From Candidatus Methanoperedens sp. (GTDB lineage Archaea; Halobacteriota; Methanosarcinia; Methanosarcinales; Methanoperedenaceae), in NCBI GenBank assembly GCA_041494705.1, contig JBGQBI010000001.1:1-32000 (forward strand): a DNA stretch of 32,000 nt. Reading direction: 5' to 3'. Under the pieces are notes generated by a model. That model was not told the origin of the DNA, did not search any database, and saw only the letters and a program-made list of their open reading frames with translations. Shown in pieces: positions 4,171 to 27,340 of this stretch. Position numbers and translations under genes: made by a program. Every line of letters begins with the position of its first letter. The first letter of the stretch is position 1.

Positions 4171-4297
4171 TGATATTCTCCAGACTTATTTGTGGACTTG
4201 ATAATATAATACTTATCAGTTATGTTTGTTCTGGTTTAAAAAATAAGAAAAATCTCGAATTGAATCTTAATTTTTGAAAATATACGGAATATTTTCT

Positions 4298-5101: not shown

Positions 5102-5181
5102 TTTTTCCCTTTTTTTATAATAGAGTTATTTTTTTCTGGCTTAATATAGTTTACTAAAAATGCATGATAATAATGATGAGA

Positions 5182-6846
5182 TTAAAATAAGGTTTTAGGT
5201 TTTTGTGCTTTCTTCTTTACATTGCCGGATTTTTTCAAGGAACCCAAACACATTTCCATACCTTTAATCGCTATTTGGCTTTCAGGATTTAATTCAAATG
5301 CCATTTGATAACTTTTAAGGGCCTCTCTGATATCCCCTTTTTTATAAAGCGCATTGCCTTTATTATTTAGAAATACATAGTCGTCCGGGTCGATTCCCAG
5401 CGCTTTATCATAGCAGATTATTGCCTCATCGATTTTTCCTGATTTTGCAAAAGCAAGACCTTTATTGTTCCAGGCGATGGTATTTTCGGAATCTATCAGA
5501 AGCGATTTATTGAACGAATCGATTGCATCTTCATATTTTTTCATGGAATACAACGCATTTCCGGTAACAAGGTGATCTAAAGCTTTTTTGGCTATTTCAT
5601 GACCAGGCGCAGGCTTTTTTTGTTGAGCTTTCGGCGCCGGTTTTTCTATCTTAATAATTTTTCTTTCAGGGGGAGGTTCGATAAATGCCTGTTCCTCGAT
5701 ACTCTTAACGGGAGCAGGTTCGGGTTTAATTGTTTTCGGTTCAGGTTGCTTAGTGATAGCTTGTTCAACAGGATGATGTTTGATTATTTTCTGCTCCTTG
5801 AAACTCTCAACAGGAGCGGGTTCAGGAATTATGGCAACTGGCTCCGCTTCAGGCTGTGGCAGCTCAATAACCGGCTGTTCAACGACTTGCGGTTCTATAA
5901 ATGCCTGTTCTTTGATGGTTTCAGCAGGATGTTCAGGCATCTTGGTAACGGTTTCTGGCTCTGGTTCAGGTTGCGGAGGCTTAATAACTGGCTGTTCAAC
6001 GACTTGCGGTTCGATAAATTCCTGTTCTTTGATGGTTTCAGGAGGAGCAGGCTTTTCAACTACTGCCTCTTGCATCGGTTCAGGCTTCGGAGGCGTAATG
6101 ACCGGTTGCTCAATAAACGGTGGTTCGATGGCAGGAGCCGCCTCCTCTTCTTTCGGTATGGATGAAGCAATCTTTTGTAAATCGATTGTTTCAGCGTTCT
6201 GCTTCATTTTTGCAAGAGCGAGCCCTTTATTGCTCCATATCTTCTCAACTTTCGGGTTTATTTCAAGAGCCTTATCATAGGATTCTATAGCCTGGGCGAA
6301 CCGGTTAAGTTTTACAAGAGTCAATCCCCTGTTATTCCATACTGTCTCGTCCCCGGGATTGATTTCGATTGATTTGTCATACGCACGAAGCGCCTCTTGA
6401 AAATTGCCGCTCTCAAAATACACATCGCCCTTGCTGCACCATGCGGCAGCGTCAGTGGGATTTTTTTCAAGCAATTTATCATAACAGGCAATGGCCTCAG
6501 GCAGCCGCCCGAGCTGGGCAAGCGCAATGCCTTTATTATACATCACTTCTTCGTCATCAGGTTTGAGTTCAATGGCTTTATCATAACACTGTATGGCTTC
6601 TGAATATCTCCCGGTTCTTGCAAGTGCAAGCCCTTTATTATTCCAGACTTCGGTTAATTTTGGGTTTATCCCGAGGACTTTATCATAATACTTAATAGCC
6701 TCTGCATACATGCCGCTCTCAACCAGCTCATTGCCCTTATTGGCCAATACGCTCGCATCCGCGCCCCCAATGTCATTCATAGGCCCACCCGCATTTTCAC
6801 TTTCGGAAATGGGTTTCTTTCTCCTGAAAATCGTCTCAAATCCCAT
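5182..6846 (-). CDS. TPR-repeat protein with central Pro/Glu-rich repeat linker
   Basis: Multiple 34-aa TPR units (W.NKG.AL...G...EAI..YDKAL.I.P) at both ends. Central low-complexity P/E/Q/I-rich region. Confidence 0.9.
   Translation of the reverse strand: MGFETIFRRKKPISESENAGGPMNDIGGADASVLANKGNELVESGMYAEAIKYYDKVLGINPKLTEVWNNKGLALARTGRYSEAIQCYDKAIELKPDDEEVMYNKGIALAQLGRLPEAIACYDKLLEKNPTDAAAWCSKGDVYFESGNFQEALRAYDKSIEINPGDETVWNNRGLTLVKLNRFAQAIESYDKALEINPKVEKIWSNKGLALAKMKQNAETIDLQKIASSIPKEEEAAPAIEPPFIEQPVITPPKPEPMQEAVVEKPAPPETIKEQEFIEPQVVEQPVIKPPQPEPEPETVTKMPEHPAETIKEQAFIEPQVVEQPVIELPQPEAEPVAIIPEPAPVESFKEQKIIKHHPVEQAITKQPEPKTIKPEPAPVKSIEEQAFIEPPPERKIIKIEKPAPKAQQKKPAPGHEIAKKALDHLVTGNALYSMKKYEDAIDSFNKSLLIDSENTIAWNNKGLAFAKSGKIDEAIICYDKALGIDPDDYVFLNNKGNALYKKGDIREALKSYQMAFELNPESQIAIKGMEMCLGSLKKSGNVKKKAQKPKTLF
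5866..6046 (-). repeat. 117-nt (39-codon) tandem duplication inside the TPR gene
   Basis: AATAAC[CT]GGCTGTTCAACGACTTGCGGTTC.ATAAAT.CCTGTTCTTTGATGGTTTCAG occurs at 5866 and again at 5983. Protein-level unit is ETIKEQ.FIEPQVVEQPVI..PQPE. Confidence 0.85.
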
Positions 6847-7173: not shown

Positions 7174-8445
7174 ATGCGACTAACTGAAAAAATCAGGATA
7201 TACCCAACACCTGAACAGGAAGAAGTATTATGGCATCTATCAGAGCAATGCAGGCTAATATACAATTTTGCTCTTGCAGAACGAAGAAAAGAATGGATAC
7301 TCAATAACTTTCGAGCCGATTTTGAAGTATTCCCTTGGGGAAAACCATACTATGAAGTTGGATACAAGAAACAGCAAAACGATTTGCCGAAAATAAAAGA
7401 AAAGTATCCGAAATATAATGTTGTATATTCAAAAGTATTGCAGATGGCTATCCGAACCCTCAATGCTGATTACAGTTCATTTTTTGAGCAAAGAAAAAAA
7501 GGTGATACCAATGCACATTCACCTGGATTCAAAGGCAAAAACCATTTCACTACAATGATGTATAATCAATCCGGGTTCACAATCAAAGGATCAGAAATAT
7601 CGTTATCCCATTTTTATAATGAAGTGCCTCTTGTATTTGAATTATTGCGAAAATACAATAAAGTCTATCAAGTAAATGTCTATCAGGTTGAAGGAAAATA
7701 TTATCTTGGGATTGTTCATGAAGTTCCGGAAAAACCTTATGTCGATAACGGATTGTATCAGGCAATTGACCTTGGAGTCACAAAAACCATAACCGCTATA
7801 AACACAGAATCAAAATTCTATGAAGCTGTAAACCCAAGACCGGACAAATACTGGAATCCGAAAGTCGATGAACTTCAAGCAAGACGAGACCATTGTATCA
7901 AAGGAAGCAATCACTGGCAGAGACTCAATCGAGCAAAGAATAAACTTACTCGGAAATGTAGTAACCAGATAAAAGACATTCAGCATAAACTCACACGGAA
8001 AATGGTTGACAATACTAAAGCCAATACAATCATTGTCGGTGACCTTGATGTCAAGGAAATGGCTCAATCCAAAAATACAAAAATAACAAAGAAAGCTAAA
8101 AAGAGTCTCAACCGATCAACTCAAAATAATGGATATTTATCTCAGTTTGTTGGATTTCTAACCTACAAGGCAGCACTTATAGGTAAGAAAGTAATAGAAA
8201 TCGATGAGCAATACACTTCTAAGAAATGTTATGTTTGCGGAAAGAAACACGACATGCCTATCTGGAAGCGTACTATGGAATGTGATTGTGGGAATGTAAT
8301 TGATAGAGATAGGAACAGTGCTATCTTTATCATGTTACGATTTCTATCAAAAAATGCCATGTGGACTGGCTACCAACAATTTGTTGGTAATCTACGACAA
8401 ACAGGGCTTATGGTGCCTAAACAAGCACCAGAAGCATACTCGTAG
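7174..8445 (+). CDS. tnpB: TnpB (OrfB) RNA-guided endonuclease / IS605-family accessory protein
   Basis: 423 aa. RuvC triad candidates AIDLGV, IEIDEQYTSKKC and IDRDRNSA. Zinc finger CYVCG...CDCG. N-terminal HTH-like region. Confidence 0.92.
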   Translation: MRLTEKIRIYPTPEQEEVLWHLSEQCRLIYNFALAERRKEWILNNFRADFEVFPWGKPYYEVGYKKQQNDLPKIKEKYPKYNVVYSKVLQMAIRTLNADYSSFFEQRKKGDTNAHSPGFKGKNHFTTMMYNQSGFTIKGSEISLSHFYNEVPLVFELLRKYNKVYQVNVYQVEGKYYLGIVHEVPEKPYVDNGLYQAIDLGVTKTITAINTESKFYEAVNPRPDKYWNPKVDELQARRDHCIKGSNHWQRLNRAKNKLTRKCSNQIKDIQHKLTRKMVDNTKANTIIVGDLDVKEMAQSKNTKITKKAKKSLNRSTQNNGYLSQFVGFLTYKAALIGKKVIEIDEQYTSKKCYVCGKKHDMPIWKRTMECDCGNVIDRDRNSAIFIMLRFLSKNAMWTGYQQFVGNLRQTGLMVPKQAPEAYS

Positions 8446-9648: not shown

Positions 9649-12600
9649 TCATACCGGGCACACAGGTGCCGGACATCCTCCTGCATATTCATCATCAGCG
9701 GATACAAATTGATCAACCCTGTCACCAAGATATAACACCTGCTGCGCCTTGCTCCCGTACCTGTAAACTGTAATTCCCTTGCATTTTAATTCATAGGCGA
9801 GCATGAACGCCTTTTCAACTTCCTTGATATCCACATCATTCGGGAAATTGATGGTCTTAGATACTGCGTTATCCGTATATTTCTGGAAAGCCGCCTGCAT
9901 CCTGACATGCCACTCTGGCGCTATATCAAAAGCAGTCACAAACACGCGCTTCACATCATCGGGCACTTCTTCAATTCCAGCGAGAGTTCCCTGCTTCGCG
10001 ATTTTCATCATCATCTCCTCGCTGTAGAAACCCCGCTCTTTCGCCACAGCTTCAAAATACGGGTTTATTTCAAGGAGTTTAGTCCCTTCCATGACATTGC
10101 GCACGAAAGAAACCGCAAACAGTGGCTCAATACCGCTTGAACAGCCTGCGATAATGCTGATAGTTCCTGTGGGAGCAACAGTTGTCACGGTGGAATTGCG
10201 TATTGGTTTCTTATACATGCTTCCCGGGAAATTCGGGAAAGCGCCCCGCTCAATCGCAAGTCTTTCTGAAGCTGCATGGGATTTTTCCTGGATGAATTTC
10301 ATAATCTCTTCGCCTGTTTTGAGGGCGTCTTCAGAATCGTACGGGATACCGAGCTGCACGAGCATATCTGCAAAACCCATTATCCCAAGACCGATTTTCC
10401 TGTTAGCTTTTGTAATTTCCTCAATCTGGGGAAGCGGGTATTTGTTGATATCTATTACATTGTCAAGGAACTTGACTGCATTGTTTATGATTTTTTCAAG
10501 GTTTTCCCAGTCGATTTTGCCATCCTTCACTATTTTCGCAAGGTTTATCGAACCAAGGTTGCAGGATTCGTAGGGTAAAAGCGGCTGCTCTCCGCAATCA
10601 AGCGACACGATTCCATTTGAAATGAAGCTCAAGGTTCTCGGCTCTGTTAAATCATATACAAGTTCCTTTCCATTTTCTTTTATATATTTTATTTTCTCTA
10701 CAAATTTGTCAGAATAAAATCCTTTTGTGAAAAATTTTCCGATTTTATCTTTATGCAGCCCGCACAGGAATCCGATGTCTCCTATAAATTTCATCACACT
10801 TTCTTTGCTGATTTCAAGCTCGAAACACACACCGCTTGAACCATATTTTCTCAGCTCCCCGCTCTTGTTGAGATAGCTGAACTTATTTTCTTCGGGTTGC
10901 CGGCTTCTGTCGTATATCCTTGATTTTATCCCTAAATTTAGCAGAAGTATTTGAACGTCTTTCAGCAGTCTCAGGGATTTTGAAGTCAGTCTTACGTATG
11001 ATGATTTATCCTTAATAAAATTAACAGTTCCATCAGCCGTGAACAGACCCTGCAAAAAACCGATAACAGCCTCTTTCGGCGCAATTAAAATACTTTCAGG
11101 GACTGTTTTGTTTCCACCATCCACAGCCCGAATGCCCAGCTTGATGAAAAAGTCCACGAAATGTTTTGAGTGGTATGATAAGTGATATACTCCATTCTCC
11201 CTTTTCACTTCTTTTATGTCAGAGCCATACCAGTAATTAATAATAGGTTTGAAATAGTCCATCACATTTTTATCTTGTTTTGAGAATGTGAACCCCACCC
11301 TTCGGTTTTTATCCCCGTCCCTGAGCCAGCCATCGCCAACCAGCCAGCCCAATACCTGACCCAATTCTTTGCTCCAATCAGATGGCAGGTTTAATCGGGT
11401 GATTTTTCCATTTTTCCCAACAAATTCATTTCCCGCATCGAATGGCAATTTGAAGTCATCGCTGAATCTCCCTTCACCGGATTGAATCGATATTCTGTGA
11501 ATCGTTGGATCCAAATCTATTGTTTTAACCCAGCCTTCAGGGGTCAGGATTTTATGGTCAGCAGTGCAGGTCAGTTCATATCCGGACTCTGTCTCTATTT
11601 TGTACGTCTCTTTTTCTCCAACACAAAAAGCCTTTATTATCTTATTGAAGCCAATCCCGGTTTGCTTTGAGCGCATCAAACTTATTGTCCCGCCGCTATT
11701 CACAATCCGGATTGGAACCTTGTTATCCGTGGCAATTCTGATTCCACCATCGGGGTGTTTTTCAATCAGGTCGCTCATTCTCATTAAGCCGTTTTCTGTC
11801 GAAATAAGCGTACTTCCGACAACGCACGGGTTTGTGCTTTCCATTTCCCCTACCTGCGGCGTGGGATTGTGCCTGTTAATCTCATCTATGAACACAACCC
11901 CCGGGTCGCCTGTCCTCCACGCCATTGTTATTATGAGGTTCCAGATATCTTTGGCCCTGACCTTCTTCACTATTTCCCTGTTCCGCGGGTTTATTAACCC
12001 GTATTCACCATCTTCCCTGACGGCTTTCATGAACTTATCATCCACCGCTACCGAGATATTGAAATTCGTAAGAAAACCCTCCTTTGTTTTTGCGGTGATG
12101 AATTCAATGATATCAGGGTGGTCTGCCCTTAGAATCCCCATATTGGCGCCGCGCCGCTTTCCTCCCTGCTTTATGATATCCGTGGTGGTGTCGAACACCC
12201 TCATGAAAGAAACCGGTCCTGATGCAACCCCTTTTGTAGATTTTACAATATCTCCCGAAGGCCGGAGGCGCGAAAATGAAAAACCCGTGCCGCCGCCTGA
12301 TTGCTGGATGAGCGCCATGCTTTTTACCGCATCAAAAATGCTCACAAGCGAGTCCTCGACAGGAATGACAAAACAGGCCGAAAGCTGTCCCAGGTCTGTA
12401 CCCGCGTTCATGAGTGTGGGCGTATTGGGCAGGAATTCAAGGTTTACCAGCATGTTGAGGAATTCATCCTCGGATTCGGGGTCAAGCGCCACGGCTTTTG
12501 CTATGCGCCGCAAAAGCCGAAGAGGTGTCTCAATCACCTTCCCGTCCTCATCTTTTAACAGGTAGCGCCTCTTGAGGACTCTTGCGGCATTAACACTCAA

Positions 12601-12921
12601 CTTCAGTTCATCCTTTACTCCGAGAAATTCCTTGGCTTTCCGTATCTGTGAGCGCTTTTCCCTGTACAGGATGTATGCTTTCGCAACGCCGGCATAGCCG
12701 TTTTTAATCAAAACCTCTTCGACCGTATCCTGGACATCTTCAACATCAGGGATTCCCGTGATTCTTTTTTCAAGAAGCTCAACTACCTGCTTTGCTATTC
12801 CCTCTGCCCTTTTGCCATCCCTGCTTTTTGTGGCGATAAATGCCTTAAAAACTGCATTGGCTATCTTTGAGCTGTCAAAATCTACAATTCTTCCGTCCCT
12901 TTTTTTGATTTTCTCAATCAT
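9649..12921 (-). CDS. nrdJ: Adenosylcobalamin-dependent (class II) ribonucleotide reductase with N-terminal ATP-cone and one in-frame intein
   Basis: ATP-cone IKKRDGRIVDFDSSKI. The catalytic motif STNP|C...|CGEQPLLPYESCNLGSINL is split by a 410-aa insert. C-terminal Cys tail CPAPVCPV. Confidence 0.95.
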   Translation of the reverse strand: MIEKIKKRDGRIVDFDSSKIANAVFKAFIATKSRDGKRAEGIAKQVVELLEKRITGIPDVEDVQDTVEEVLIKNGYAGVAKAYILYREKRSQIRKAKEFLGVKDELKLSVNAARVLKRRYLLKDEDGKVIETPLRLLRRIAKAVALDPESEDEFLNMLVNLEFLPNTPTLMNAGTDLGQLSACFVIPVEDSLVSIFDAVKSMALIQQSGGGTGFSFSRLRPSGDIVKSTKGVASGPVSFMRVFDTTTDIIKQGGKRRGANMGILRADHPDIIEFITAKTKEGFLTNFNISVAVDDKFMKAVREDGEYGLINPRNREIVKKVRAKDIWNLIITMAWRTGDPGVVFIDEINRHNPTPQVGEMESTNPCVVGSTLISTENGLMRMSDLIEKHPDGGIRIATDNKVPIRIVNSGGTISLMRSKQTGIGFNKIIKAFCVGEKETYKIETESGYELTCTADHKILTPEGWVKTIDLDPTIHRISIQSGEGRFSDDFKLPFDAGNEFVGKNGKITRLNLPSDWSKELGQVLGWLVGDGWLRDGDKNRRVGFTFSKQDKNVMDYFKPIINYWYGSDIKEVKRENGVYHLSYHSKHFVDFFIKLGIRAVDGGNKTVPESILIAPKEAVIGFLQGLFTADGTVNFIKDKSSYVRLTSKSLRLLKDVQILLLNLGIKSRIYDRSRQPEENKFSYLNKSGELRKYGSSGVCFELEISKESVMKFIGDIGFLCGLHKDKIGKFFTKGFYSDKFVEKIKYIKENGKELVYDLTEPRTLSFISNGIVSLDCGEQPLLPYESCNLGSINLAKIVKDGKIDWENLEKIINNAVKFLDNVIDINKYPLPQIEEITKANRKIGLGIMGFADMLVQLGIPYDSEDALKTGEEIMKFIQEKSHAASERLAIERGAFPNFPGSMYKKPIRNSTVTTVAPTGTISIIAGCSSGIEPLFAVSFVRNVMEGTKLLEINPYFEAVAKERGFYSEEMMMKIAKQGTLAGIEEVPDDVKRVFVTAFDIAPEWHVRMQAAFQKYTDNAVSKTINFPNDVDIKEVEKAFMLAYELKCKGITVYRYGSKAQQVLYLGDRVDQFVSADDEYAGGCPAPVCPV
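10597..11826 (-). mobile_element. Intein (residues 366-775) with LAGLIDADG homing endonuclease domain
   Basis: Block A CVVGSTLI, block B TCTADHKILT, LAGLIDADG motifs LGWLVGDGWL and GFLQGLFTADGTV. Block F/G is VYDLTE...FISNGIVSLD followed by the +1 Cys of NPCGEQ. Confidence 0.85.
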
Positions 12922-13063: not shown

Positions 13064-13158
13064 CAACAGCCGGATGAAGGAACACGGATTACACGGATGC
13101 GACGGATACGCACGGATTTTCATTGATTCCCTTCCATCTATTATCCCATACTTCTCCC
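13064..13158. repeat. CACGGAT-iteron element, copy A1
   Basis: CAACAGCCGGATGAAGGAACACGGATTACACGGATGCGACGGATACGCACGGATTTTCATTGAT...CCCATAC. Four [CG]ACGGAT units at 9-10 nt spacing. Matches 14259-14352. Confidence 0.75.
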
Positions 13159-13168
13159 CAAACTACAT

Positions 13169-13585
13169 TTAGTATTTTATAAGATACTGAGCTATGTATT
13201 TACTAAATTGTTCAATATCTCCAATATTATTCTGCAAGTAATAATAGAGCTTTCCGATGTCTATTTTTGCGTACATGTGGACGAGCCTATTTCTAAATCC
13301 TGCAGATGGTGCAAATTTTACAGCAAAATCACCCGGCAAAATACCATGCTCTCCAAGAACCAAAAACACTTCCTGGTATGTTTCAGGTCGTTTAAGTTTT
13401 TCTCTTGATATTATCATTTCACCAATGTCGATGGTACATTCCAGTGCAATCTCTAAATATCGCTCGACTGCTCCCTTAAGTGTGTGGTCTGTCTGTAAGT
13501 CCTCTATTTTAAAATGTTGATAGCCTTTTAATATGCTCACATATTCTTCAAGCTGTTCAAGTTTGGATGCTATTTCATCATTCAC
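13169..13585 (-). CDS. hepT: HepT (DUF86/HEPN) toxin of a type VII MNT-HepT toxin-antitoxin pair
   Basis: 138 aa. R-x4-H-x-Y motif in FRNRLVHMY. Overlaps the upstream MNT gene by 4 nt. Confidence 0.85.
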   Translation of the reverse strand: MNDEIASKLEQLEEYVSILKGYQHFKIEDLQTDHTLKGAVERYLEIALECTIDIGEMIISREKLKRPETYQEVFLVLGEHGILPGDFAVKFAPSAGFRNRLVHMYAKIDIGKLYYYLQNNIGDIEQFSKYIAQYLIKY

Positions 13586-14052
13586 GAGAAACCGACCCCG
13601 GCAATCCTTTTCAGAGTTTCTTCCGTATGCCTCTTTATGTAATATTTTTCATCCATATACATAGAAAGGAGCTTTGTTTCGAACTTTACTCTCTCTATTT
13701 CACTGGATTTTAAAATAATTCCATTTTTTATAATATTATATGCCAGAAGCAAAGGCGCTTCATTTAAAACGATCAAATCTATTTTGTTTTTCTTGATTAA
13801 AGCGGCTATTTCACCCATCAATTTTAATTCCAGATCGAAGCGGTCTTTTTTGGATAATTTTTCATCGAGCAGGACTCCAATATCAACATCGCTCAACCTG
13901 CCTGTATCGCCCCTGACTGTTGAGCCAAAAAGATAAGCAAGTATTATGCTGTCTTTGCTGCTGAAGTATTCTGTTAGTTCCTTTTCATATGGTATCATGA
14001 ATACTCTGTAATTTGTTTTTGCTAATATATGTTCTTCGCTCATGTGCAGCAT
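13582..14052 (-). CDS. mntA: MNT-family nucleotidyltransferase antitoxin
   Basis: LFGSTVRGDTGRLSDVDIGVL (GS...DxD polymerase-beta-type NTase motif). The true start may be the internal M of MIPYEKEL. Confidence 0.85.
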   Translation of the reverse strand: MLHMSEEHILAKTNYRVFMIPYEKELTEYFSSKDSIILAYLFGSTVRGDTGRLSDVDIGVLLDEKLSKKDRFDLELKLMGEIAALIKKNKIDLIVLNEAPLLLAYNIIKNGIILKSSEIERVKFETKLLSMYMDEKYYIKRHTEETLKRIAGVGFS

Positions 14053-14119: not shown

Positions 14120-14243
14120 TGGCGCCGGCAGGTCCCCGGAGCGGCGGACTGCTCTGAAAGCATGCAGGCTTGCGAAAAGGAGGGAGAGAGGCTTCCGCAG
14201 TCTATTGATAGATAGGGGTATGTGTTCTTAATCGGGTTGCGCT
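14120..14243. repeat. About 120-nt repeat B, copy 1
   Basis: TGGCGCCGGCAGG...AGCGGCGGA.TGCTCTGAAAGC.TGCAGGCTTGCGAAAAGGAGG.AGAGAGGCTTCCGCAGTCTAT...GGGGTATGTGT...AATC.GGTTGCGCT matches 15495-15610. The two copies differ by a 6-nt indel and a few substitutions. Confidence 0.8.
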
Positions 14244-14258
14244 GGTTAGTTAAACAGT

Positions 14259-14352
14259 CAACAGCCGGGTGACGGAACACGGATGACACGGATTCGACGG
14301 ATACGCACGGATTTTCATTGATATTTTTTCTATCTATTAACCCCATACCTCC
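14259..14352. repeat. CACGGAT-iteron element, copy A2, inserted between repeats B1 and C1
   Basis: CAACAGCCGGGTGACGGAACACGGATGACACGGATTCGACGGATACGCACGGATTTTCATTGAT...CCCCATAC. The segment 14244 to about 14377 is absent from the otherwise collinear copy at 15495-15700. Confidence 0.75.
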
Positions 14353-14377
14353 GCAATCTTCTCCTTTATCTTCCCCT

Positions 14378-14470
14378 AAAAAAGCTCGATCAGTTTCTTA
14401 TTTGCATCGACCAATTTCTGCTCCTATTCGATTCGGGCAACGATTTCCGCTCCCCGGGGAGGGGGCGGGA
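14378..14470 (-). pseudogene. Decayed 3' fragment resembling the conserved region of a type I R-M specificity subunit (hsdS-like), copy C1
   Basis: Minus-strand translation is VIPPPPRGAEIVARIE*EQKLVDANKKLIELF*. This resembles the HsdS conserved motif (PLPPLEEQ..IV..IE.E..LV...K.LIE.FE) but has an in-frame stop. Confidence 0.5.
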
Positions 14471-14514: not shown

Positions 14515-14844
14515 TCACGCCTCTACCTTCTGCTTGACTATCTTGAGTCTGATGCCTCCTGGCTCGGTTTCGATGGGCAGCTTAAAGTTCGAATTAAGGT
14601 GATAGAGATCTGCAATCACTTTTGGAAGTCGTATAGATATGCTATTGCCCGATTTATATACAGTCGCCTCCACACCTTTCTTCAGTGCTTTGAAGTATTT
14701 GACGATGTTATCCACATCTTGAGGGTCGCTGTGTTCATTACCGCATTCGCACCGCCAGCCATGTATAATAAACCCTTTCAGGTTAATATCTTCCACTGTA
14801 TTCATTTCTTTTCCACAGATATTGCATTTATGCATCTTTTTCAC
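14515..14844 (-). CDS. Zinc-ribbon + AbrB/SpoVT-like domain protein, putative antitoxin
   Basis: 109 aa. CNICG...CECG zinc ribbon followed by SISIRLPKVIADLYHL (swapped-hairpin-like). Overlaps the upstream ORF by 17 nt. Confidence 0.6.
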   Translation of the reverse strand: MKKMHKCNICGKEMNTVEDINLKGFIIHGWRCECGNEHSDPQDVDNIVKYFKALKKGVEATVYKSGNSISIRLPKVIADLYHLNSNFKLPIETEPGGIRLKIVKQKVEA

Positions 14845-15115
14845 CTCGCATTAATTTCAATTTTTCTTTAGTAGCTCTAATTTTTCCGACGTGTCTTATA
14901 AGCCAATAATCATCATAGTCCTCGATCGCCACGATGTAGATAATCTGTCCGCGGTGGCACCACTTTTCGATTATACCTTTTTTCCTTTTGGATACTTCTT
15001 TACCGTTTTCAAGTAATTCTATTATCTGATGTATTTCAATTCCGAGTTCTATCATTTCGCCATCGGCATTTCTGTTATGGTCAGGAATTAATGGCTTATT
15101 TTTCCATGTTATCAA
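14828..15115 (-). CDS. Small putative toxin (DUF4258-like pattern)
   Basis: 95 aa. MIELGIEIHQIIELLENGKEV...IYIVAIEDYDDYWLIRHV resembles the DUF4258 layout (ER.IS..EV.E.L.NG ... V.V......IITV). Assignment is by eye only. Confidence 0.45.
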   Translation of the reverse strand: MITWKNKPLIPDHNRNADGEMIELGIEIHQIIELLENGKEVSKRKKGIIEKWCHRGQIIYIVAIEDYDDYWLIRHVGKIRATKEKLKLMRGEKDA

Positions 15116-15164: not shown

Positions 15165-15380
15165 TTTTTTGTTATCCAAAGAGGCATGGAAGCGCAGAGA
15201 CATTCTTTTTATCGAATTCTTATATAAAAATTGCGGCGCATGCTATCCCCATGCAACCAATATCTATCAAAATACCGCGCTGCTGTCCTTCTCTTCTTTC
15301 CCGCAGGTGTGACAGCAGGAAAGGGGCGGGGTTATGAGCATGGTCGTTTGGTTTAAGAAATAGTATTCATCCAGACGAAA

Positions 15381-15420
15381 GGAACACGGATGACGCGGAT
15401 TGGACGGATACGCACGGATT
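15381..15420. repeat. CACGGAT-iteron element, copy A3 (shorter, diverged flanks)
   Basis: GGAACACGGATGACGCGGATTGGACGGATACGCACGGATT. Confidence 0.7.
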
Positions 15421-15494
15421 TTTTTATTAGCCGTGAAAATCCGATATAAGAGAGAGAGCACTAATAATTTTATATAATAATGGCAATTAAAATG

Positions 15495-15610
15495 TGGCGC
15501 CGGCAGGAGCGGCGGATTGCTCTGAAAGCTTGCAGGCTTGCGAAAAGGAGGAAGAGAGGCTTCCGCAGTCTATTTATGATGGGGGTATGTGTTTTTAATC
15601 AGGTTGCGCT
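15495..15610. repeat. About 120-nt repeat B, copy 2
   Basis: Collinear with 14120-14243. Confidence 0.8.
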
Positions 15611-15700
15611 CGAAAAGCTCGATCAGTTTCTTGCATGTCTCGATACAATTTCTGTTCCTCTTTAATTCGGGCAACGATTTGCTTTTTGATATCATGGAGT
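15611..15700 (-). pseudogene. Decayed hsdS-like 3' fragment, copy C2, immediately downstream of the 202-aa gene
   Basis: Minus-strand translation is LPLHDIKKQIVARIKEEQKL. After a frameshift it continues CIETCKKLIELFERNLIKNTYP. The DNA is collinear with 14378-14450. Confidence 0.5.
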
Positions 15701-15706
15701 GGGAGA

Positions 15707-16315
15707 TCATGGCAGTAAGTTAAATAACCCAGTAAATTGTTCACCAGATAAAATTAACACGTTCTTTGTTCTAAAAGTGGGTTTATCCACCCTTTCCAGA
15801 AACAAAGAGTATTTTAAAAGTTTCACAAATATTTTCAATACTCGTTCAGATTTGGCAACTATTACACCAAAACGCCCCATGGCAGAAGTATTTATTATGT
15901 CAGCTAAAACGACCTTGCGATCTGCTCTTCCTTCTATCTCAACCGCCATGAAGCATCTTGCATTTGTATTCGTAAACTCTCGATTGAAGAAATCATCAAA
16001 CCTTGGCAATTCTTCTTCTCGGTTACTATACCGTTCTAAGTTTTCAATGTGAGCATTTAACGCGAATCGTAATAATCTCCGTACATCTCTATTGGCTAAT
16101 AACTCATCATATTCTAGAATACATTGGGTTTCTATTGCAAAAGGACCTATTGCAATATCTATCATTGGGGAAGATATAAATTGATCGTGCCATCTATTGA
16201 ATGGTAACCATTCTTTTCTTATTTCAACATCTCTACCTCTAATTGTAGTTGGAAATTTTCTTGCAAATTCCCGAACACCCATATTTTGGAGTCTTATTGT
16301 TTCTGCGTTTGGCAT
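15707..16315 (-). CDS. Hypothetical protein, possible PD-(D/E)xK (BamHI/BglII-like) nuclease fold
   Basis: 202-aa ORF in the AT-rich block. SPMIDIAIGPF (D53) and CFMAVEIEGRADRKVVLADIINTSAMGRFGVIV (E126, E128, K134) fit a D...ExE...K pattern. Confidence 0.6.
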   Translation of the reverse strand: MPNAETIRLQNMGVREFARKFPTTIRGRDVEIRKEWLPFNRWHDQFISSPMIDIAIGPFAIETQCILEYDELLANRDVRRLLRFALNAHIENLERYSNREEELPRFDDFFNREFTNTNARCFMAVEIEGRADRKVVLADIINTSAMGRFGVIVAKSERVLKIFVKLLKYSLFLERVDKPTFRTKNVLILSGEQFTGLFNLLP

Positions 16316-16408
16316 TTTAAGTCCTTTTTGATTCTTTTTAATTAGTCCAATATTTCATTTTTAATGGTAATTTGTTCTATGAATTTTTCTATATAATTTT
16401 ATTTAAAA

Positions 16409-18832
16409 TTATTTATTCCATTCATAAATTTTATTACCACATCCGCATCTTATCTTTTTGCAAACTTCATCATAGTATTTTAGAGAAATGAATTTCTGAC
16501 AAGAACCGCAAAAAAATAAATCATCCAAATCTTTTACATCTTTCCAAAACGCTTTGAAATCATTGATGCTTGCAACAAATGTACTGTCGTGAGAATCTTT
16601 ATTGCCTAAAAATACGGACTTTAAAAGCCTGTCCAGTATTGCGCTATTCTTCAACACCAAACTTGGCTGTTTATTGATTTTATTTTTAAGTTCAGTTAAA
16701 AGTTCATAAGCCATTCTATCTTCATTTGTATCATTATAGACAAACTTAACCTTAACTTCTAAATTAAATGCAATGTCTTTGAGTCTATGCTCAAGATATT
16801 TTCTACAATCATTACCTAATCCTGTTTCGTCATTTGTTTTAATCTTATGCTCTATTCTTTCTTTTAAAGTCTCAAAAGGTTCATCAATGTAGGTTCCTCT
16901 ATCTTCACTCCATTTTATAGTGTTAACTTTCCAGTTTTTCCCCTTCACTAGGTTTTTAACAATATCAAACCAATTTTTTTCGTGAGTTAATAAAATAATT
17001 TGATAATCAGAAAATTTTTCAACTAATAGATCAGCAAAGCGTTTTCTATGGCTTGTGTCCAGACTTGATATCACATCATCAAGAATAAAGAATTTATTCT
17101 TTTTATTAAATGCTTTAACAGAGGTAAGAAAGAAAGCTATTCCGAAACAATTGAGGTGGGATTCGCTTAAATATTTATGAGGCGGTGAAACCTCATTTTC
17201 AAAAAACTTAAATTGGAATGTTATACCTGCTAAATCATCATCTTTTTCAAGAGGAATTAATTTTATATCCTCAACTTTTTCATCTGGATGCATAAATTGA
17301 TATAGACTATTAATATCCTTCGAAAAGATAGAAAGGAAAGATTCCAAACCCTCTTTTTGTTTTTTTGCAAACTCACTATATACTAATTCTAATGATTTTA
17401 TTTGATTATCTAATATTTTTCTTTCTTTTGTTAACTTCTTAATTTCAAAATATGCATTTCTTGATAATACTATCTTACTATGAATATCAAATTTAAGATT
17501 ATCCTTTTTGTTCGTCTTTAATTGCTCGTTCTTTTCTTTACAGAAATCAACTATTTGTTTAAAGAGTTCTTTATCAATTATGAATTCATTTGCTATTTTA
17601 AGCTTTTGAATCTCAGAAATTTCAATATCTGATTCAGCTAAATAATTTTCAAAGCAAATATTTAACTTTCTAATTTTTATTTTTAATTCTTTATTATCTG
17701 CTAATTCAAAGTGCTTATCTGATAATAAAGGTTTAATTAACTGGTTGGAATCATTAAGTACTCTTTGTAAAGATTTTTTTAAGTCAATCAACCTTAATTT
17801 TTCTTTTTTGTATTTTTCTAATTCAATGATTCTAAGTTCTAATTCCTTTAATAACTCCTTTTTATTTTTGGGCTGCAAACACAGCGGACAATTGTTATCT
17901 GTAATAATATTCCGTTTTAAAACATCTACACCTACAGATAATAGTGTTTCTAATTCGATTTTATTTATTTTTTCAATATCAGTAATTATTTTTTGAAATT
18001 GGTCATAATATTTTTTATAAGATTCTTCTATTTCACCAAGCCTGTTGGATAAATTAGAAATAAGATCATTTACGTTGCTATAAAATGATTGAATTGCCAC
18101 TATTCTAGAATCATCAGGTTCTTTGATTAATGTTAAAATACTATCTATATCATCGATTTTTGTTAATTCTTTATCAATACCTAAAAGTTTTATCAGTTTG
18201 TTTATAGAATCAATAAATTGCTCATCAGATGTTATATTGTGCCCGATATGCTCTATAATATGAGCTTGTTGGGCATTAATCTGGTTATCAAACTTTTGTA
18301 ATTTGAGTTCCTTTTTTAGTTCATTAGTAATTTTTCTTAATATATCTCTAGTGCCTGTGACCTCTGAAAACCCAATAATATTAGAAAGCTCGATTAATTT
18401 CTCGGATTTCGGGGCTAAAATAAAATTCATTAAATCTTCATAGCGTAAAATGATATTTTCGTTTTTGGAAGCCTTTAGAAAATCAACGAATTCATTTGAA
18501 TTATTTGAATATTCAGAAGTATAGGAGCCTTTTTTTAAATAGATGCATTTATACGAATTAAATTCTTTGTCTGTAAATTCAATGTTAATAAAAGCTTTTT
18601 CATCATCACCTAAAAAGAAATTTCTTAAAGCAGCTATACCCCCCCGCCCGATTTCTTCACTTGCCAAGTGTTCTATTCTGTCATAATAAAACCACTCAAA
18701 TGCATCTGAAATACTGCTCTTACCAGTGGCATTATCACCATAAAGCAAAACAGATTTTTCATCTATATTTAGTGATAAATTTGATTTAATTCCTCTAAGG
18801 CCATTTATATTAAAACTTTTAATTTTTGCCAT
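16409..18832 (-). CDS. Rad50/RloC-like ABC ATPase with coiled-coil zinc hook, C-terminal HEPN-type (R-x4-H) domain and terminal zinc ribbon
   Basis: Walker A GDNATGKSS (aa 32-40). About 400 aa of K/E/L/I-rich coiled coil with NCPLCLQ (C315/C318) at mid-point. Signature LSESHLNCF, Walker B FFILDDV, H-loop LLTHE, RKYLEH (aa 677-682), CGSC...CGCG (aa 775-798). Confidence 0.85.
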   Translation of the reverse strand: MAKIKSFNINGLRGIKSNLSLNIDEKSVLLYGDNATGKSSISDAFEWFYYDRIEHLASEEIGRGGIAALRNFFLGDDEKAFINIEFTDKEFNSYKCIYLKKGSYTSEYSNNSNEFVDFLKASKNENIILRYEDLMNFILAPKSEKLIELSNIIGFSEVTGTRDILRKITNELKKELKLQKFDNQINAQQAHIIEHIGHNITSDEQFIDSINKLIKLLGIDKELTKIDDIDSILTLIKEPDDSRIVAIQSFYSNVNDLISNLSNRLGEIEESYKKYYDQFQKIITDIEKINKIELETLLSVGVDVLKRNIITDNNCPLCLQPKNKKELLKELELRIIELEKYKKEKLRLIDLKKSLQRVLNDSNQLIKPLLSDKHFELADNKELKIKIRKLNICFENYLAESDIEISEIQKLKIANEFIIDKELFKQIVDFCKEKNEQLKTNKKDNLKFDIHSKIVLSRNAYFEIKKLTKERKILDNQIKSLELVYSEFAKKQKEGLESFLSIFSKDINSLYQFMHPDEKVEDIKLIPLEKDDDLAGITFQFKFFENEVSPPHKYLSESHLNCFGIAFFLTSVKAFNKKNKFFILDDVISSLDTSHRKRFADLLVEKFSDYQIILLTHEKNWFDIVKNLVKGKNWKVNTIKWSEDRGTYIDEPFETLKERIEHKIKTNDETGLGNDCRKYLEHRLKDIAFNLEVKVKFVYNDTNEDRMAYELLTELKNKINKQPSLVLKNSAILDRLLKSVFLGNKDSHDSTFVASINDFKAFWKDVKDLDDLFFCGSCQKFISLKYYDEVCKKIRCGCGNKIYEWNK

Positions 18833-19154
18833 TTATCGCTTCTTCTCTAAGCTCTATTAATGCATTAAAAATTTGTTTTTCGTTAAATTTATTATTCTGA
18901 TATAGTCCTATTAAAGCATCTGCAATCTTCGGATCAATTCCGGAAATTTCTTTTAAACCATCAAAAAATTCGTCTAATATCTCCTTACCACTCTTAATTG
19001 TGTTACTCATTTTTCGTCTCCCTTTTTTCAAAATAACTCCATCTATTTTAAAGTTAATATCCAATTCATTTTGTAAAATCTCAAATTCTGTTTTATTGTT
19101 ACAGCTTGGATATTCACCATAATTTCTTACCACCTTTTTAATATTAAATCCCAT
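18819..19154 (-). CDS. Small hypothetical protein, first gene of the AT-rich cluster
   Basis: 111-aa ORF overlapping the ATPase start by 14 nt. An alternative start is M49 (19010), preceded by GGGAGA, giving 63 aa. No recognisable motif. Confidence 0.5.
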   Translation of the reverse strand: MGFNIKKVVRNYGEYPSCNNKTEFEILQNELDINFKIDGVILKKGRRKMSNTIKSGKEILDEFFDGLKEISGIDPKIADALIGLYQNNKFNEKQIFNALIELREEAINGKN

Positions 19155-19445
19155 GAGCCCTGATATTGCTCAGCTCAGATGATTATAATACTCATATAAG
19201 TATAAATATTCTTTCTTTTTATCTTTTTTACCACTCTACTTACATAAAAATCACATAAAACCCGCCATCCCTTTTGCTTCACCTCTCGCTCTCAAACAGC
19301 GACTTCATCCTAAGTTCAAGCCCCTCCCTCAAATACACCGCACAAACCTCACCCACCCACAACCTCCACTTCACTCCTCCCCAAAAAATCCTTATCAAAA
19401 GTCGCTATCTTCCTTCTCCTTACCTTATCGCTCGTCTCATCTCAA

Positions 19446-20173: not shown

Positions 20174-21508
20174 TTAACGCCAATAAGGCTTTCGCAGTTC
20201 GATATATGCATTATGCGCCACCGTAGCCCCATGCGCCACCGCAACCACGACCAGTTGAAGGTCAGAGGCTATGTCGCCCACTGCATAAATCCCGTCGATA
20301 TTGGTCTTCTGGGTTTTATCGGTCTTGAGGTACCCTTTTTCATCCATCTCAAGCCCGAGCTTCTTGAAAATCTCGGTGTTGGGCGTCAAACCGACAGCCA
20401 GCACAACCGAATCCACCACCTGCTGGATGGTTTCATCCTCCTTTAAGTCCTTCATAATGGCTTTCTCGACCTTTTCAGTTCCGGCTATTTCGAGAACCTC
20501 GGTATTATACAACACCTTGATTTTATCTATCGCCTTCAGTCGCTCTATCTTCTGCGGGACAACTCTTAACTCATCCTTCCTGTGCGCTATGGTGATGAGG
20601 TCGGCAGTGTCGGCAAGGGAAAGCGCAGCGTCAACTGCGGAATTACCGCCCCCGACGACGAGAACGCGTTTTCCCACAAAATTCTGGGGGTCCCTGACAT
20701 AATAATATACACCGCGTTCATTCTTGCTGAATTTATCTTCGCCTTTAATGTCGCCTGTAGATGGCGAACTGCCAGTTGCAAGAACGATAATCTTTCCTCT
20801 GTACGCGCCGCTTTCAGCGATGATTTTCTTATCCTGGGTGATTTCATTCACGCGTTCTTTTTTCATTTCCACTTTCAGTTTCTTTGCTTCATTCACCCAG
20901 CTTTCAACAAGGTCAGTACATGTTGATTTCTCACACAGCCCCGGGAAATTTTCAATCATCTTGTTCGGGCATAACCATGAAAGTATCCCGCCCCAGTTTG
21001 AAGCTTCAAATATCGCGGTTTTAAGCCCCCGGTACGCGCACAATATCCCGGTTGTCAGCCCGCCCGGTCCCCCGCCTACTATAATCACATCAAAATCATA
21101 GTTCTCAGCCTCGGTTTTGGCTTTCTCCTCTTTTTTGGTCATGTAATCCTTGATTGCAGCATGAAGCGCATCTGCTGCAAGGTTTGAGCAGTGCATCTTG
21201 ATAGGAGGCAGGCCGTCAAGTTCTGCCGCCACATCTCCCCTTGTAATTTTAAGAGCTTCCTCAAGCGTTTTACCAATGGCCATTTCTGTTATCATGCTGC
21301 TTGTTGCGATTGCAGAGCCGCAGCCGAATGTCTTGAACTTCACGTCCTTTAAAATATTGTTCTCGACCTTGATTTGTATCTCCATCAAATCCCCGCAAAC
21401 AGGGTTCCCGACCCTTCCAATCCCGTCGGCGTCCTTAATCTCTCCAACATTGCGCGGGTTCCTGAAATGTTCCATTACTTTTTCTGAGTATTCGAATTGT
21501 TCTTCCAT
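20174..21508 (-). CDS. Fusion protein: IscU/NifU-N scaffold domain + thioredoxin-reductase-like flavoprotein lacking the CxxC (FNR-like)
   Basis: IscU cysteines are present in NPVCGD, FGCGSAIA and MHCSNLA. FAD and NAD(P) folds DVIIVGGGPGG, VVGGGNSAVDAA and GIYAVGDI follow. RGVYYYVRDPQNFVGK occupies the position where TrxB has GVSACATCDGFFY. Confidence 0.85.
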   Translation of the reverse strand: MEEQFEYSEKVMEHFRNPRNVGEIKDADGIGRVGNPVCGDLMEIQIKVENNILKDVKFKTFGCGSAIATSSMITEMAIGKTLEEALKITRGDVAAELDGLPPIKMHCSNLAADALHAAIKDYMTKKEEKAKTEAENYDFDVIIVGGGPGGLTTGILCAYRGLKTAIFEASNWGGILSWLCPNKMIENFPGLCEKSTCTDLVESWVNEAKKLKVEMKKERVNEITQDKKIIAESGAYRGKIIVLATGSSPSTGDIKGEDKFSKNERGVYYYVRDPQNFVGKRVLVVGGGNSAVDAALSLADTADLITIAHRKDELRVVPQKIERLKAIDKIKVLYNTEVLEIAGTEKVEKAIMKDLKEDETIQQVVDSVVLAVGLTPNTEIFKKLGLEMDEKGYLKTDKTQKTNIDGIYAVGDIASDLQLVVVAVAHGATVAHNAYIELRKPYWR

Positions 21509-26326: not shown

Positions 26327-27340
26327 TTATAACCTCCTTCTTGATACAAATACAATTAAGAGCGCAGATATTGCTGCAAATATTTCAAATCCGGGTGCCT
26401 TGGGGGTTTCTCCGGGATACGCCTGATACGCCGGTACCGCCGTTGCCATAGGATTAGTATAGCCTGGCGCTGCGCCGCCTTCACGCACGAACTTTGAAAC
26501 CTCGATATTCGTCTTTTTCTCAACACTTTCCTTGGGAACGGTCTTTGTGGGGGCAAGAAGCACCGGCTTTTCCCAGCTATTTATCAAAGTACCCCCTCTC
26601 CAGAGTTCCACTACCACCATGTAATTATATCCTTCAGGCACAGCAAGCACAACACTTTTTACCGCAGTCGTTTCGTTTGCGATCACGCCGGTTTCGGTGC
26701 CAGTCTTATCCGCAAGCAGGTTGGAAGTGGCTTCCCTTGCTTTTACAGTCATTTTCAGGTTTTCGGAAGCTTGAGGGCCTTTATTTTCAAGGTATATGTC
26801 GGATTTAATGGAGACCTTCCCGGTTGAAACGTTGGTGACTGTAAAATCGATATTGTTCAGCATCACTCCGCTTCTCTTTGACATGGGCGTCAGGGCGTTC
26901 AATCCGCTTATGCTCACCGAGCCGCTGTCCATGATGCTCCCGTTGTCAAAAAGAAGGATATTAAGGTCATAGCCTCCGTTCCTTTCAAGGTTTAAATTGG
27001 TTGAAATAGCAAGCGTTTTTTCCAAATCAGATTCGATTTCCGGTATCGGGGCTGAAACCTGGGTTTCAAGCAGTCTGGTATCACTGCTTATGGCTCTTAT
27101 GAGCATGGTCGCGTTCCGAGTTTTAGCGCCTTTATGGTTTATATAGGCTGTAACATTCACCTCTACCTGCGAGCTGGTAACCATGACTGGTTTTACATCC
27201 ACATCGCGGATGTTGAGGTTTGATGGGGGAACCCATGTTTCAGGCGGCTTTTGCAGAACGTCGCTTTTAATTATAACAATAGCAAAAGATAAAATCAACA
27301 ACGATGCCAATATTATTGTGAGCAGATGACCCGGTTTCAT
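26327..27340 (-). CDS. Secreted/surface protein with N-terminal signal anchor and PGF-CTERM sorting signal
   Basis: N-terminal LLTIILASLLILSFAIVII. C-terminal PKAPGFEIFAAISALLIVFVSRRRL (PGF + TM + basic tail). Confidence 0.75.
   Translation of the reverse strand: MKPGHLLTIILASLLILSFAIVIIKSDVLQKPPETWVPPSNLNIRDVDVKPVMVTSSQVEVNVTAYINHKGAKTRNATMLIRAISSDTRLLETQVSAPIPEIESDLEKTLAISTNLNLERNGGYDLNILLFDNGSIMDSGSVSISGLNALTPMSKRSGVMLNNIDFTVTNVSTGKVSIKSDIYLENKGPQASENLKMTVKAREATSNLLADKTGTETGVIANETTAVKSVVLAVPEGYNYMVVVELWRGGTLINSWEKPVLLAPTKTVPKESVEKKTNIEVSKFVREGGAAPGYTNPMATAVPAYQAYPGETPKAPGFEIFAAISALLIVFVSRRRL

Follow-up and report, generated by a model that had tools for sequence, protein, structure and literature searches.

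A low-G+C block of minus-strand genes in a 32,000-nucleotide (nt) stretch of a Candidatus Methanoperedens genome (hereafter the window, meaning the whole stretch and not the block studied) is probably a horizontally acquired, 5'-truncated copy of a conserved three-gene candidate defence operon, the remainder of which would still function as an RloC-like module. The block is built around a gene for an 807-amino-acid (aa) Rad50/SMC-type ABC ATPase, and the conserved unit to which this gene belongs consists of a GIY-YIG-type nuclease gene, a gene for a protein of about 62 aa and the ATPase gene. This is not the unit proposed in a first-pass annotation of the same DNA, which had joined a 111-aa open reading frame (ORF), the ATPase and a 202-aa putative PD-(D/E)xK nuclease into a defence cluster. 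The system is real, widespread and uncharacterised, and the window copy is a truncated derivative of it.

A nuclease gene and a small gene accompany the ATPase gene

Three co-directional ORFs make up the block, at 18819-19154 (111 aa), 16409-18832 (807 aa) and 15707-16315 (202 aa), the first two overlapping by 14 nt and the last two lying 93 nt apart, exactly as the first-pass annotation had listed them. For the comparison of gene neighbourhoods we fetched the 80 best species loci from species-representative genomes, the family loci numbering 87 in total, and ran hidden Markov models (HMMs) built from the first examples on all ORFs; gene content was counted at the 83 of these 87 loci that have at least 760 nt of upstream sequence. 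A gene of about 150 aa and an overlapping gene of 61-63 aa recur as a pair upstream of the ATPase gene. Both are present at 82 of the 83 loci, in the order 150-aa, 62-aa, ATPase on one strand at 81 of the 82 complete loci and divergently oriented at the remaining one, and a homologue of the 62-aa gene stands immediately upstream of the ATPase gene at all 83. The sole locus that is missing the GIY-YIG gene is L001, the window's closest relative. Homologues of the 202-aa gene occur at none of the 87 loci, so the three-gene unit of the first-pass annotation fails the co-occurrence check. A conserved fourth gene upstream of the operon was considered and dropped, the upstream neighbours being heterogeneous. 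On a Brucella anthropi plasmid (L094, about 1 kb from the plasmid repA/repB genes), a member of a branch with 30% identity has its GIY-YIG gene (3318-3767, minus strand) divergent from the small and ATPase genes (3787-6397, plus strand), the starts being about 20 nt apart.

Conservation within the ~150-aa family suggests that its members are GIY-YIG-type nucleases. The family carries a GLY...YIGMSE signature, and G27-L-Y29, Y49-I-G51, R63, H67, E105/E108 and N126 are at least 90% conserved across 47 sequences. Pfam recovers GIY_YIG_2 in 42 and GIY-YIG in 26 of the 47, all below the curated cut-off; the best profile matches are to PF20815 (3.9e-4) and PF01541 (4.2e-4), with scores such as 18.5 against the 22.4 bits called for, and some members are named 'GIY-YIG nuclease family protein' at NCBI. 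An hhalign comparison of the family alignment with an I-TevI sequence gave nothing informative. The 62-aa family is recognisable by the pattern IKSGKEILDxFF...LY..xKLT..N..N.L..LRE and matches nothing known, and PADLOC v2 holds no model for either partner protein. The expectation of a small dedicated partner is thus borne out by the gene that adjoins the ATPase gene at 83/83 loci, although the true gene in the window encodes 63 aa and not 111.

The ATPase and its C-terminal domain

The 807-aa protein is, by its motifs and profile matches, a Rad50/SMC-type ABC ATPase (Table 1), as had been read from the first. In Pfam it matches SMC_N at 1.5e-12 in two separate stretches, and its best PADLOC match is LmuB (PDLC03859, 4.4e-20, 70 bits), which aligns residues 4-635 with positions 5-597 of a 611-position profile; weaker PADLOC matches are to mad3, PDC-S06, AriA and AbiLi, and PHROG returns an SbcC-like match. 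The protein has more than 380 homologues, the majority of those listed being 800-812 aa long. Motif invariance was judged on an alignment of 20 diverse homologues, in which the ABC motifs and the CPLC zinc hook at residues 315-318 are invariant, in keeping with the zinc hook of the first-pass annotation, and all ATPase motifs as well as the hook are intact in the window copy. Natural variants of about 650-655 aa (e.g. L009 5001-6989, L034 and L067) lack the C-terminal domain, and others of about 775 aa (e.g. P0037) lack the zinc ribbon only. Since both partner genes, for GIY-YIG and for the 62-aa protein, persist beside the ~655-aa forms that have no C-terminal domain, the putative effector arms are separable.

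Table 1. Features of the block and its upstream junction, in the order in which the minus strand is read. Coordinates refer to the window; residue numbers refer to the 807-aa protein unless stated otherwise.
Feature	Coordinates	Strand	Remarks
Replacement sequence upstream of the remnant (deletion junction)	19155..19283	(-)	common to L001; TATA-like AATATTTATAC
GIY-YIG gene remnant, last ~45 codons of that gene, fused in frame to the 63-aa gene	19011..19154	(-)	
True 63-aa partner gene, start M49 of the 111-aa ORF	18819..19010	(-)	overlaps the ATPase gene by 14 nt
807-aa Rad50/SMC-like ABC ATPase: split head, ~360-aa coiled-coil insert, zinc hook, HEPN-like domain, zinc ribbon	16409..18832	(-)	
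Walker A/P-loop, residues 32-40 GDNATGKSS	18713..18739	(-)	G32, G37, K38, S39 invariant (20 diverse homologues)
Coiled-coil insert, about residues 160-520	17273..18355	(-)	between N- and C-lobes of the ABC head; within the LmuB profile alignment
CPLC zinc hook C315-P-L-C318, coiled-coil apex	17879..17890	(-)	C315, P316, L317, C318 invariant (20 diverse homologues)
ABC head C-lobe	16979..17176	(-)	signature-like SESH 556-559, Walker B DD 585-586, D-loop, H-loop H617; columns invariant
HEPN-like helical domain, about residues 652-770	16523..16879	(-)	R677-x3-E681-x3-K685, N703-E-D-R706-M, S747-H748
4-Cys zinc ribbon C775, C778, C796, C798	16439..16510	(-)	cysteines conserved in alignment; beta-strands in model
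AT-rich spacer, 93 nt, 16% G+C	16316..16408	(-)	TTTAAATA near 5' end; also kept in L096
202-aa gene, neighbour of separate origin; possible restriction-endonuclease-like protein	15707..16315	(-)	

An AlphaFold2 model of residues 636-807, built from a 48-sequence alignment, has a mean predicted local distance difference test score (pLDDT) of 84 and comprises a helical domain followed by a small beta ribbon; the beta-strands and the four conserved cysteines fit the extra terminal zinc ribbon that had been noticed at the outset. In a Foldseek search of the PDB with this model, HEPN proteins came out on top (2q00, 2hsb and 2jpu, of which 2q00 and 2jpu are one and the same Sulfolobus protein), with 4nqf and 3o10 further down. 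These matches reach probabilities of 0.98-0.99 at E-values of 0.07-0.4 (0.07-0.12 for 2q00/2hsb) and are therefore weak, yet as the best fold matches of the model they speak for the C-terminal HEPN reading. The conserved polar residues of the domain are R677, E681, K685, N700, N703, E704, R706, E710, S747, H748 and D758, and its pattern is R-x3-E-x3-K ... SH, with E681-x3-K685 invariant or nearly so. HEPN domains carry an E-x3-[KR] motif in their N-terminal helix (PMC3710099), and the window ATPase has this element as E681-x3-K685. The catalytic motif first assigned, R677/H682, did not survive the alignment: H682 is variable, and R677, E681, K685 and H748 are conserved instead. By pattern alone, R677-x3-E681...H748 parallels the Arg-Glu-His triads of PrrC (R320/E324/H356) and RloC (R692/E696/H737) (PMC2610378, PMC3025547), and the sequence leading up to H748 is G-N-[KR]-x-S, a conserved arginine 5-7 residues upstream being absent. 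A phmmer search of 1.84 billion representatives placed the C-terminal domain in 191 clusters, nearly always at the C-terminus of proteins of about 800 aa.

Loss of the nuclease gene and selection on the remainder

In the window, the 111-aa ORF begins with 48 residues that correspond in alignment to the C-terminal end of the GIY-YIG family (YGxYPxCNNKTxFEIL) and are also matched by the family HMM, and the DNA at positions 19024-19130 shares 88% identity with the 3' end of the GIY-YIG gene at L093, a related locus. Translation from M49 gives an N-terminus that agrees with all of the ~80 homologues of the small protein, and GGGAG lies 7 nt before this ATG. By these alignments the 111-aa ORF is a chimera of a GIY-YIG remnant and an intact 63-aa gene.

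L093 has an ATPase that is 79% identical to that of the window and a complete operon, with downstream genes that differ from the window's; since it keeps the full operon, the loss of the nuclease would be recent. The ATPase of L001, whose locus adjoins an archaeal PolC DP2 gene, is 86% identical, and there the nuclease gene is missing and the remnant bears a further deletion. Ahead of the remnant, L001 and the window have about 130 nt of unrelated sequence in common: window 19119-19283 aligns at 69% identity with the DNA that precedes the small gene of L001 and has no counterpart in L093. This points to a single loss in their common ancestor. The TATA-like AATATTTATAC makes this region (19155..19283) a putative promoter.

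Between the window and L001, the ratio of nonsynonymous to synonymous substitution rates (dN/dS) of the ATPase gene is 0.16 at a synonymous divergence (dS) of 0.45; the C-terminal domain taken by itself gives 0.11, and the 63-aa gene 0.21. Given the ratio of 0.16, the two-gene remainder is probably functional, and it appears to have been kept under purifying selection.

The 202-aa gene is a neighbour

We found 14 homologue clusters of the 202-aa protein and no more. Its distant homologues occur in four unrelated contexts (a Nanoarchaeia contig and contigs of three other samples) without such an ATPase, and the search for a conserved partner of the family there was abandoned, as none is shared. 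In two close relatives, L096 and L097, the 3' end of the ATPase gene, the spacer and the 202-aa gene are kept with 88% nucleotide identity over window 15612-16531; this is co-inheritance within one clade and not independent co-occurrence. The AlphaFold2 model of the protein has a pLDDT of 89.5, and D53, E126, E128 and K134 are invariant across its family; the elements follow one another as alpha-beta-beta-(helices)-beta-alpha-beta, which is compatible with a PD-(D/E)xK core. Foldseek found no significant match for the model in the PDB or BFVD, the weak ones including restriction-enzyme, DUF2726, DUF559 and ERCC4 proteins; an hmmsearch of PDB sequences with the family profile gave no relevant match, and the 111-aa and 202-aa proteins gave only weak, uninformative matches (E 0.015-0.5) to Pfam, NCBIfam, PHROGs and PADLOC. 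The assignment to the PD-(D/E)xK nucleases is therefore left without a significant fold or profile match behind it. The 202-aa gene is best read as a separately acquired neighbour in the same variable island and not as a conserved member of the system, possibly with an archaeal promoter of its own in the spacer (TTTAAATA).

Small proteins with a canonical PD...E-x-K signature (e.g. IPDFII...AVLEFK) recur beside archaeal loci of this kind (L007 5256-5822, L093 368-745, L001 4849-5481). Two of them, L007_188 and L093_125, are 58% identical; one adjoins a gene of the 202-aa family and the other a complete operon.

Distribution and genomic context of the family

The family was found in 234 of 185,579 species representatives (~0.13%), a patchy distribution, and it is overwhelmingly bacterial, as are 79 of the 80 best species loci, and hence no archaeal speciality. 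At 66 loci the upstream neighbours are heterogeneous and rich in defence and mobile-element genes, among them OLD/Gabija-like ATPase-TOPRIM genes, N6 methylases, Eco57I, Shedu SduA, type I/III restriction genes, HerA and integrases; single loci adjoin type III or FokI restriction-modification genes or MazE. Relatives are present on plasmids, and a tblastn search of phage genomes gave no match. A role in defence is supported, by inference, by the defence-island neighbours, the plasmid-borne relatives, the patchy distribution and the foreign composition of the block.

This last feature is plain for two of the genes. The 807-aa and 63-aa genes have 27.4% and 28% G+C against 43-46% in the flanks, and the low-G+C block is compositionally foreign and probably horizontally acquired; the 202-aa gene, at 35.5%, is unlike the 807-aa gene and does not share in this part of the first-pass claim. 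The underlying hand counts of that annotation (11 G+C in 17401-17460 and 37 in 20581-20640) are exact.

A working model and its alternatives

The full operon would encode a GIY-YIG-type endonuclease of about 150 aa, a helical protein of about 62 aa and a zinc-hook ATPase of about 807 aa with a HEPN-like domain and a ribbon. By analogy with RloC and Lamassu, the ATPase would dimerise via its heads and the zinc hook and, in an ATP-dependent manner, may sense DNA ends or foreign DNA. Sensing would then release the effectors, which in the complete system would be the GIY-YIG DNase and the C-terminal RNase-like domain, and the 62-aa protein may serve as an adaptor or regulator. Both in the archaeon of the window and in L001, the 5' two-thirds of the nuclease gene appear to have been deleted or replaced, so that the RNase-like arm alone would remain, as an RloC-like module of the abortive-infection type. 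The overall model of the first-pass annotation survives in its RloC/Lamassu-like ATPase with a small partner; its 202-aa member, its 111-aa gene and its Rx4H motif do not.

A number of results weigh against this model. The canonical Rx4-6H motif of HEPN domains is missing, position 682 varying among H/S/Y/N/G/R/Q, and the many invariant acidic residues of the C-terminal domain could mean a catalytic chemistry other than that of HEPN. An hmmsearch of PDB sequences with the profile of this domain gave no relevant match and did not recover HEPN, and hhalign found nothing between it and the window's own HepT protein. The GIY-YIG-like family likewise scores under the Pfam gathering thresholds, and its profile retrieved no GIY-YIG structure from the PDB by hmmsearch. 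Selection after the deletion presupposes a single loss, for which the basis is one alignment of about 165 nt at 69% identity. A second lineage (L096/L097) also has the 807-aa and 202-aa genes side by side, and the two may be functionally linked in this clade. Finally, the argument for defence is made entirely from context and analogy.

In a different account, the place of the lost GIY-YIG protein has been taken by the 202-aa protein as DNA-nuclease effector, which would now form the unit together with the ATPase and the 63-aa protein. Its gene adjoins the ATPase gene in the same orientation, the spacer is conserved, and L096 and L097, which are independent samples, match the stretch from the ATPase 3' end to the 202-aa gene at 88% identity; in current sampling the loss of GIY-YIG and the gain of the 202-aa gene fall on the same branch, L093 having the GIY-YIG gene and other genes downstream. 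The invariant residues, the order of elements and the weak restriction-enzyme-like fold matches described above would also suit an effector. Co-occurrence outside the close clade is nevertheless 0/87 family loci, the four distant contexts have neither the ATPase nor a common partner, the G+C contents differ (35.5% against 27.4%), the spacer has its own TATA-like box, and no fold or profile match is significant; the L001 contig, moreover, ends before the position downstream of its ATPase gene. We regard such a replacement as unlikely. We would give no better prospects to a broader proposal, that the GIY-YIG/62-aa/ATPase operon is an undescribed anti-mobile-element system bridging Lamassu and RloC. 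One zinc-hook SMC-like sensor would then govern two separable effectors, the DNase acting in trans and the RNase-like domain in cis, and in the archaeal clade the unrelated, nuclease-like 202-aa protein would have displaced GIY-YIG as a non-orthologous effector.

The window copy might instead be a decaying relic, non-functional since the loss of the nuclease, with ORFs that are intact for lack of time. An effector gene conserved at 82/83 loci is destroyed in it, the remnant in L001 is eroded further, and the native upstream region of the operon has been replaced. Against decay stand a dS of 0.45 with a dN/dS of 0.16 over 807 codons and no frameshift or stop in either lineage, which are hard to square with neutral change; all catalytic and structural motifs are kept, and the C-terminal domain is the most constrained part (dN/dS 0.11). 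We hold this to be improbable, and far more so a housekeeping role for the family in DNA repair, as a complex like SbcCD/Rad50-Mre11 in which GIY-YIG takes Mre11's place. A Rad50/SbcC-like architecture, the zinc hook, the SbcC-like match in PHROG and an order of nuclease before ATPase as in sbcD-sbcC (PMC12663957) would fit repair, whereas presence in ~0.13% of species representatives, a foreign composition in the window, a setting among restriction-modification, OLD, Shedu and toxin-antitoxin genes and integrases, plasmid-borne relatives and an RNase-like domain that has no role in repair would not. The truncated copy of a defence operon with a functional remainder is thus the explanation that we prefer.

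Should the family prove to be a defence system, it would be an example of a single Rad50-like sensor with a DNA-cutting as well as an RNA-cutting output, and the natural losses of either arm (of the RNase-like tail in the ~655-aa ATPases, of the DNase in the archaeal copy) would offer a ready genetic dissection of the coupling between SMC-type sensors and effectors. The locus also illustrates that annotation by adjacency would misname the third gene and give a chimeric first gene here.

Surroundings of the block in the window

A HepT/MNT toxin-antitoxin pair lies at 13169-14052, bearing out the toxin-antitoxin surroundings that had been described. The hsdS-like remnant placed at about 15600-15712 fared differently: the peptide has no Pfam match and sits inside a repeated intergenic element (14138-14446/15506-15680), and its hsdS identity was dropped. 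This element, of about 170-300 nt, occurs twice (14138-14446 and 15506-15680) with 78-94% identity, and a 64-nt intergenic unit containing four ACGGAT-like motifs occurs three times (13064-13127, 14259-14322 and 15366-15429). The repeats separate small cassettes, namely the HepT/MNT pair, a 95-aa plus 109-aa pair and the 202-aa gene, an arrangement that resembles an array of cassettes divided by conserved spacers. The pair at 14515-15115 (minus strand), whose 95-aa and 109-aa genes overlap, looks like a further toxin-antitoxin module; DUF4258 is matched weakly by the 95-aa protein (E 0.013), and the 109-aa protein has a Cys-rich N-terminal segment and a C-terminus that by eye is AbrB/MazE-like. 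Scans of the window for tRNAs and Rfam families returned nothing that marks an integration site.

Further away, at a distance of about 7 kb from the block, is an IS605-family OrfB/TnpB-like gene (7174-8445, plus strand) with Cas12f1-like TNB, OrfB_IS605 and HTH domains, and a ribonucleotide reductase gene (9649-12921, minus strand) contains an intein with a LAGLIDADG endonuclease; the PolC DP2 gene beside the L001 locus (L001 508-4821) also carries an intein. The window further encodes a PGF-CTERM/DUF7490 surface protein (26327-27340, minus strand) and a DUF7125/KaiC-like ATPase (4298-5101, minus strand), which we take to be archaeal-type families, fitting an archaeal host. The same locus is also found in assembly GCA_041489935.1.

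Comparison with known systems

The complete system is Lamassu-like in the order of its operon and RloC-like in the architecture of its ATPase, and tests of membership place it in neither. The first-pass likening to both was reasonable, given a Rad50/SMC-type ATPase with a zinc hook, a HEPN-like tail and a dedicated small partner. Its claim that no named system fits is upheld to the extent that RloC and Lamassu do not accommodate the family and that we found no description of it, although the unit that lacks a name is not the gene set then proposed. In the literature searched there was no description of a system combining GIY-YIG with an SMC/ABC-HEPN protein, although the ABC-ATPase classification of Krishnan et al. 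2020 may already name the clade; a 2024 survey of 132 systems has GIY-YIG domains only in three single-gene systems.

On the evidence of its sequence, the window ATPase would belong to an RloC-like sister family rather than to RloC itself. Both proteins are about 800 aa long, with a split ABC head, a coiled-coil insert that bears a CxxC zinc hook, a motif of the same kind in RloC and Rad50 (PMC2610378), and a C-terminal helical, nuclease-like domain with Arg-x3-Glu...His (R692/E696/H737 in RloC, R677/E681/H748 in the window). RloC has its nuclease under the control of the zinc hook and of a DNA-dependent ATPase (PMC2610378, PMC3458546). The paired D585/D586 at Walker B also resemble Asp215/Asp216 of PrrC, which are among the essential residues of its NTP-binding site (PMC3025547). 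The window ATPase differs from RloC in a Glu-to-His spacing of 67 residues against 41 and in its extra terminal zinc ribbon, and whereas RloC is described as a single gene, the window family is almost always in an operon with the GIY-YIG and 62-aa genes. Pfam AAA_13 (PF13166) gives no match to the window protein at E<=1, and about 10 of 120 listed homologues have a precomputed PF13166 hit. A Bradyrhizobium plasmid ATPase with 23% identity passes the AAA_13 (PrrC family) cut-off (38.6 against 36 bits) and aligns with window residues 456-796 (BLASTP 8e-21), the R-x3-E, the Cys ribbon and a CPVC hook being held in common. This stand-alone 827-aa AAA_13 ATPase with the same tail architecture (L095 2597-5080) adjoins adenylate/guanylate cyclase and E2-domain genes, read as a CBASS-like pair, and similar matches occur on several Bradyrhizobium and Rhizobium plasmids.

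Lamassu consists of the effector LmuA, LmuC and the SMC-like LmuB, long forms of which keep the CxxC motif, and its SMC-like sensor of DNA ends frees the nuclease (PMC12663957). The order nuclease effector, small protein, SMC-like ATPase (81/82 complete loci) is common to both systems, and Lamassu too has modular effectors and variants with lost components (PMC12663957). LmuB is the best PADLOC match of the window ATPase and nearly full-length, with a score of 70 bits that is low for a 611-position profile and is not proof of membership. The 150-aa proteins have no LmuA match in PADLOC and no LmuA C-terminal domain, their size being about that of a nuclease domain alone, and the 62-aa proteins have no LmuC match there; LmuC is globular and DNA-binding, with mutated residues up to K149 (PMC12663957), for which 62 aa looks too small. 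The text of the Lamassu paper PMC12663957 contains 0 mentions of GIY-YIG, and the second putative effector domain of the window ATPase, HEPN-like with a zinc ribbon, is one that we have not seen described for LmuB.

With SbcCD/Rad50-Mre11 the family shares a zinc-hook coiled-coil ABC ATPase encoded downstream of a nuclease partner. That partner is, however, GIY-YIG-like and not an Mre11/SbcD phosphoesterase, there being no conserved Metallophos (Mre11/SbcD-type) neighbour at the family loci; the coiled coil is much shorter, and the family has an RNase-like domain and a patchy, defence-island-linked distribution. The ABC-HEPN fusion families APECO1_4465 and ERFG_01251 of Anantharaman et al. 2013, compared here by description only, combine an N-terminal ABC ATPase with a C-terminal HEPN-type domain under its regulation and occur in mobile or defence settings, but their entry for conservation of Rx4-6H in Table 1 of that work is 'Yes' and no GIY-YIG or 62-aa partner is listed for them (PMC3710099). 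RloC-type ABC-HEPN proteins, Lamassu and SbcCD may plausibly be linked in evolution through this family.

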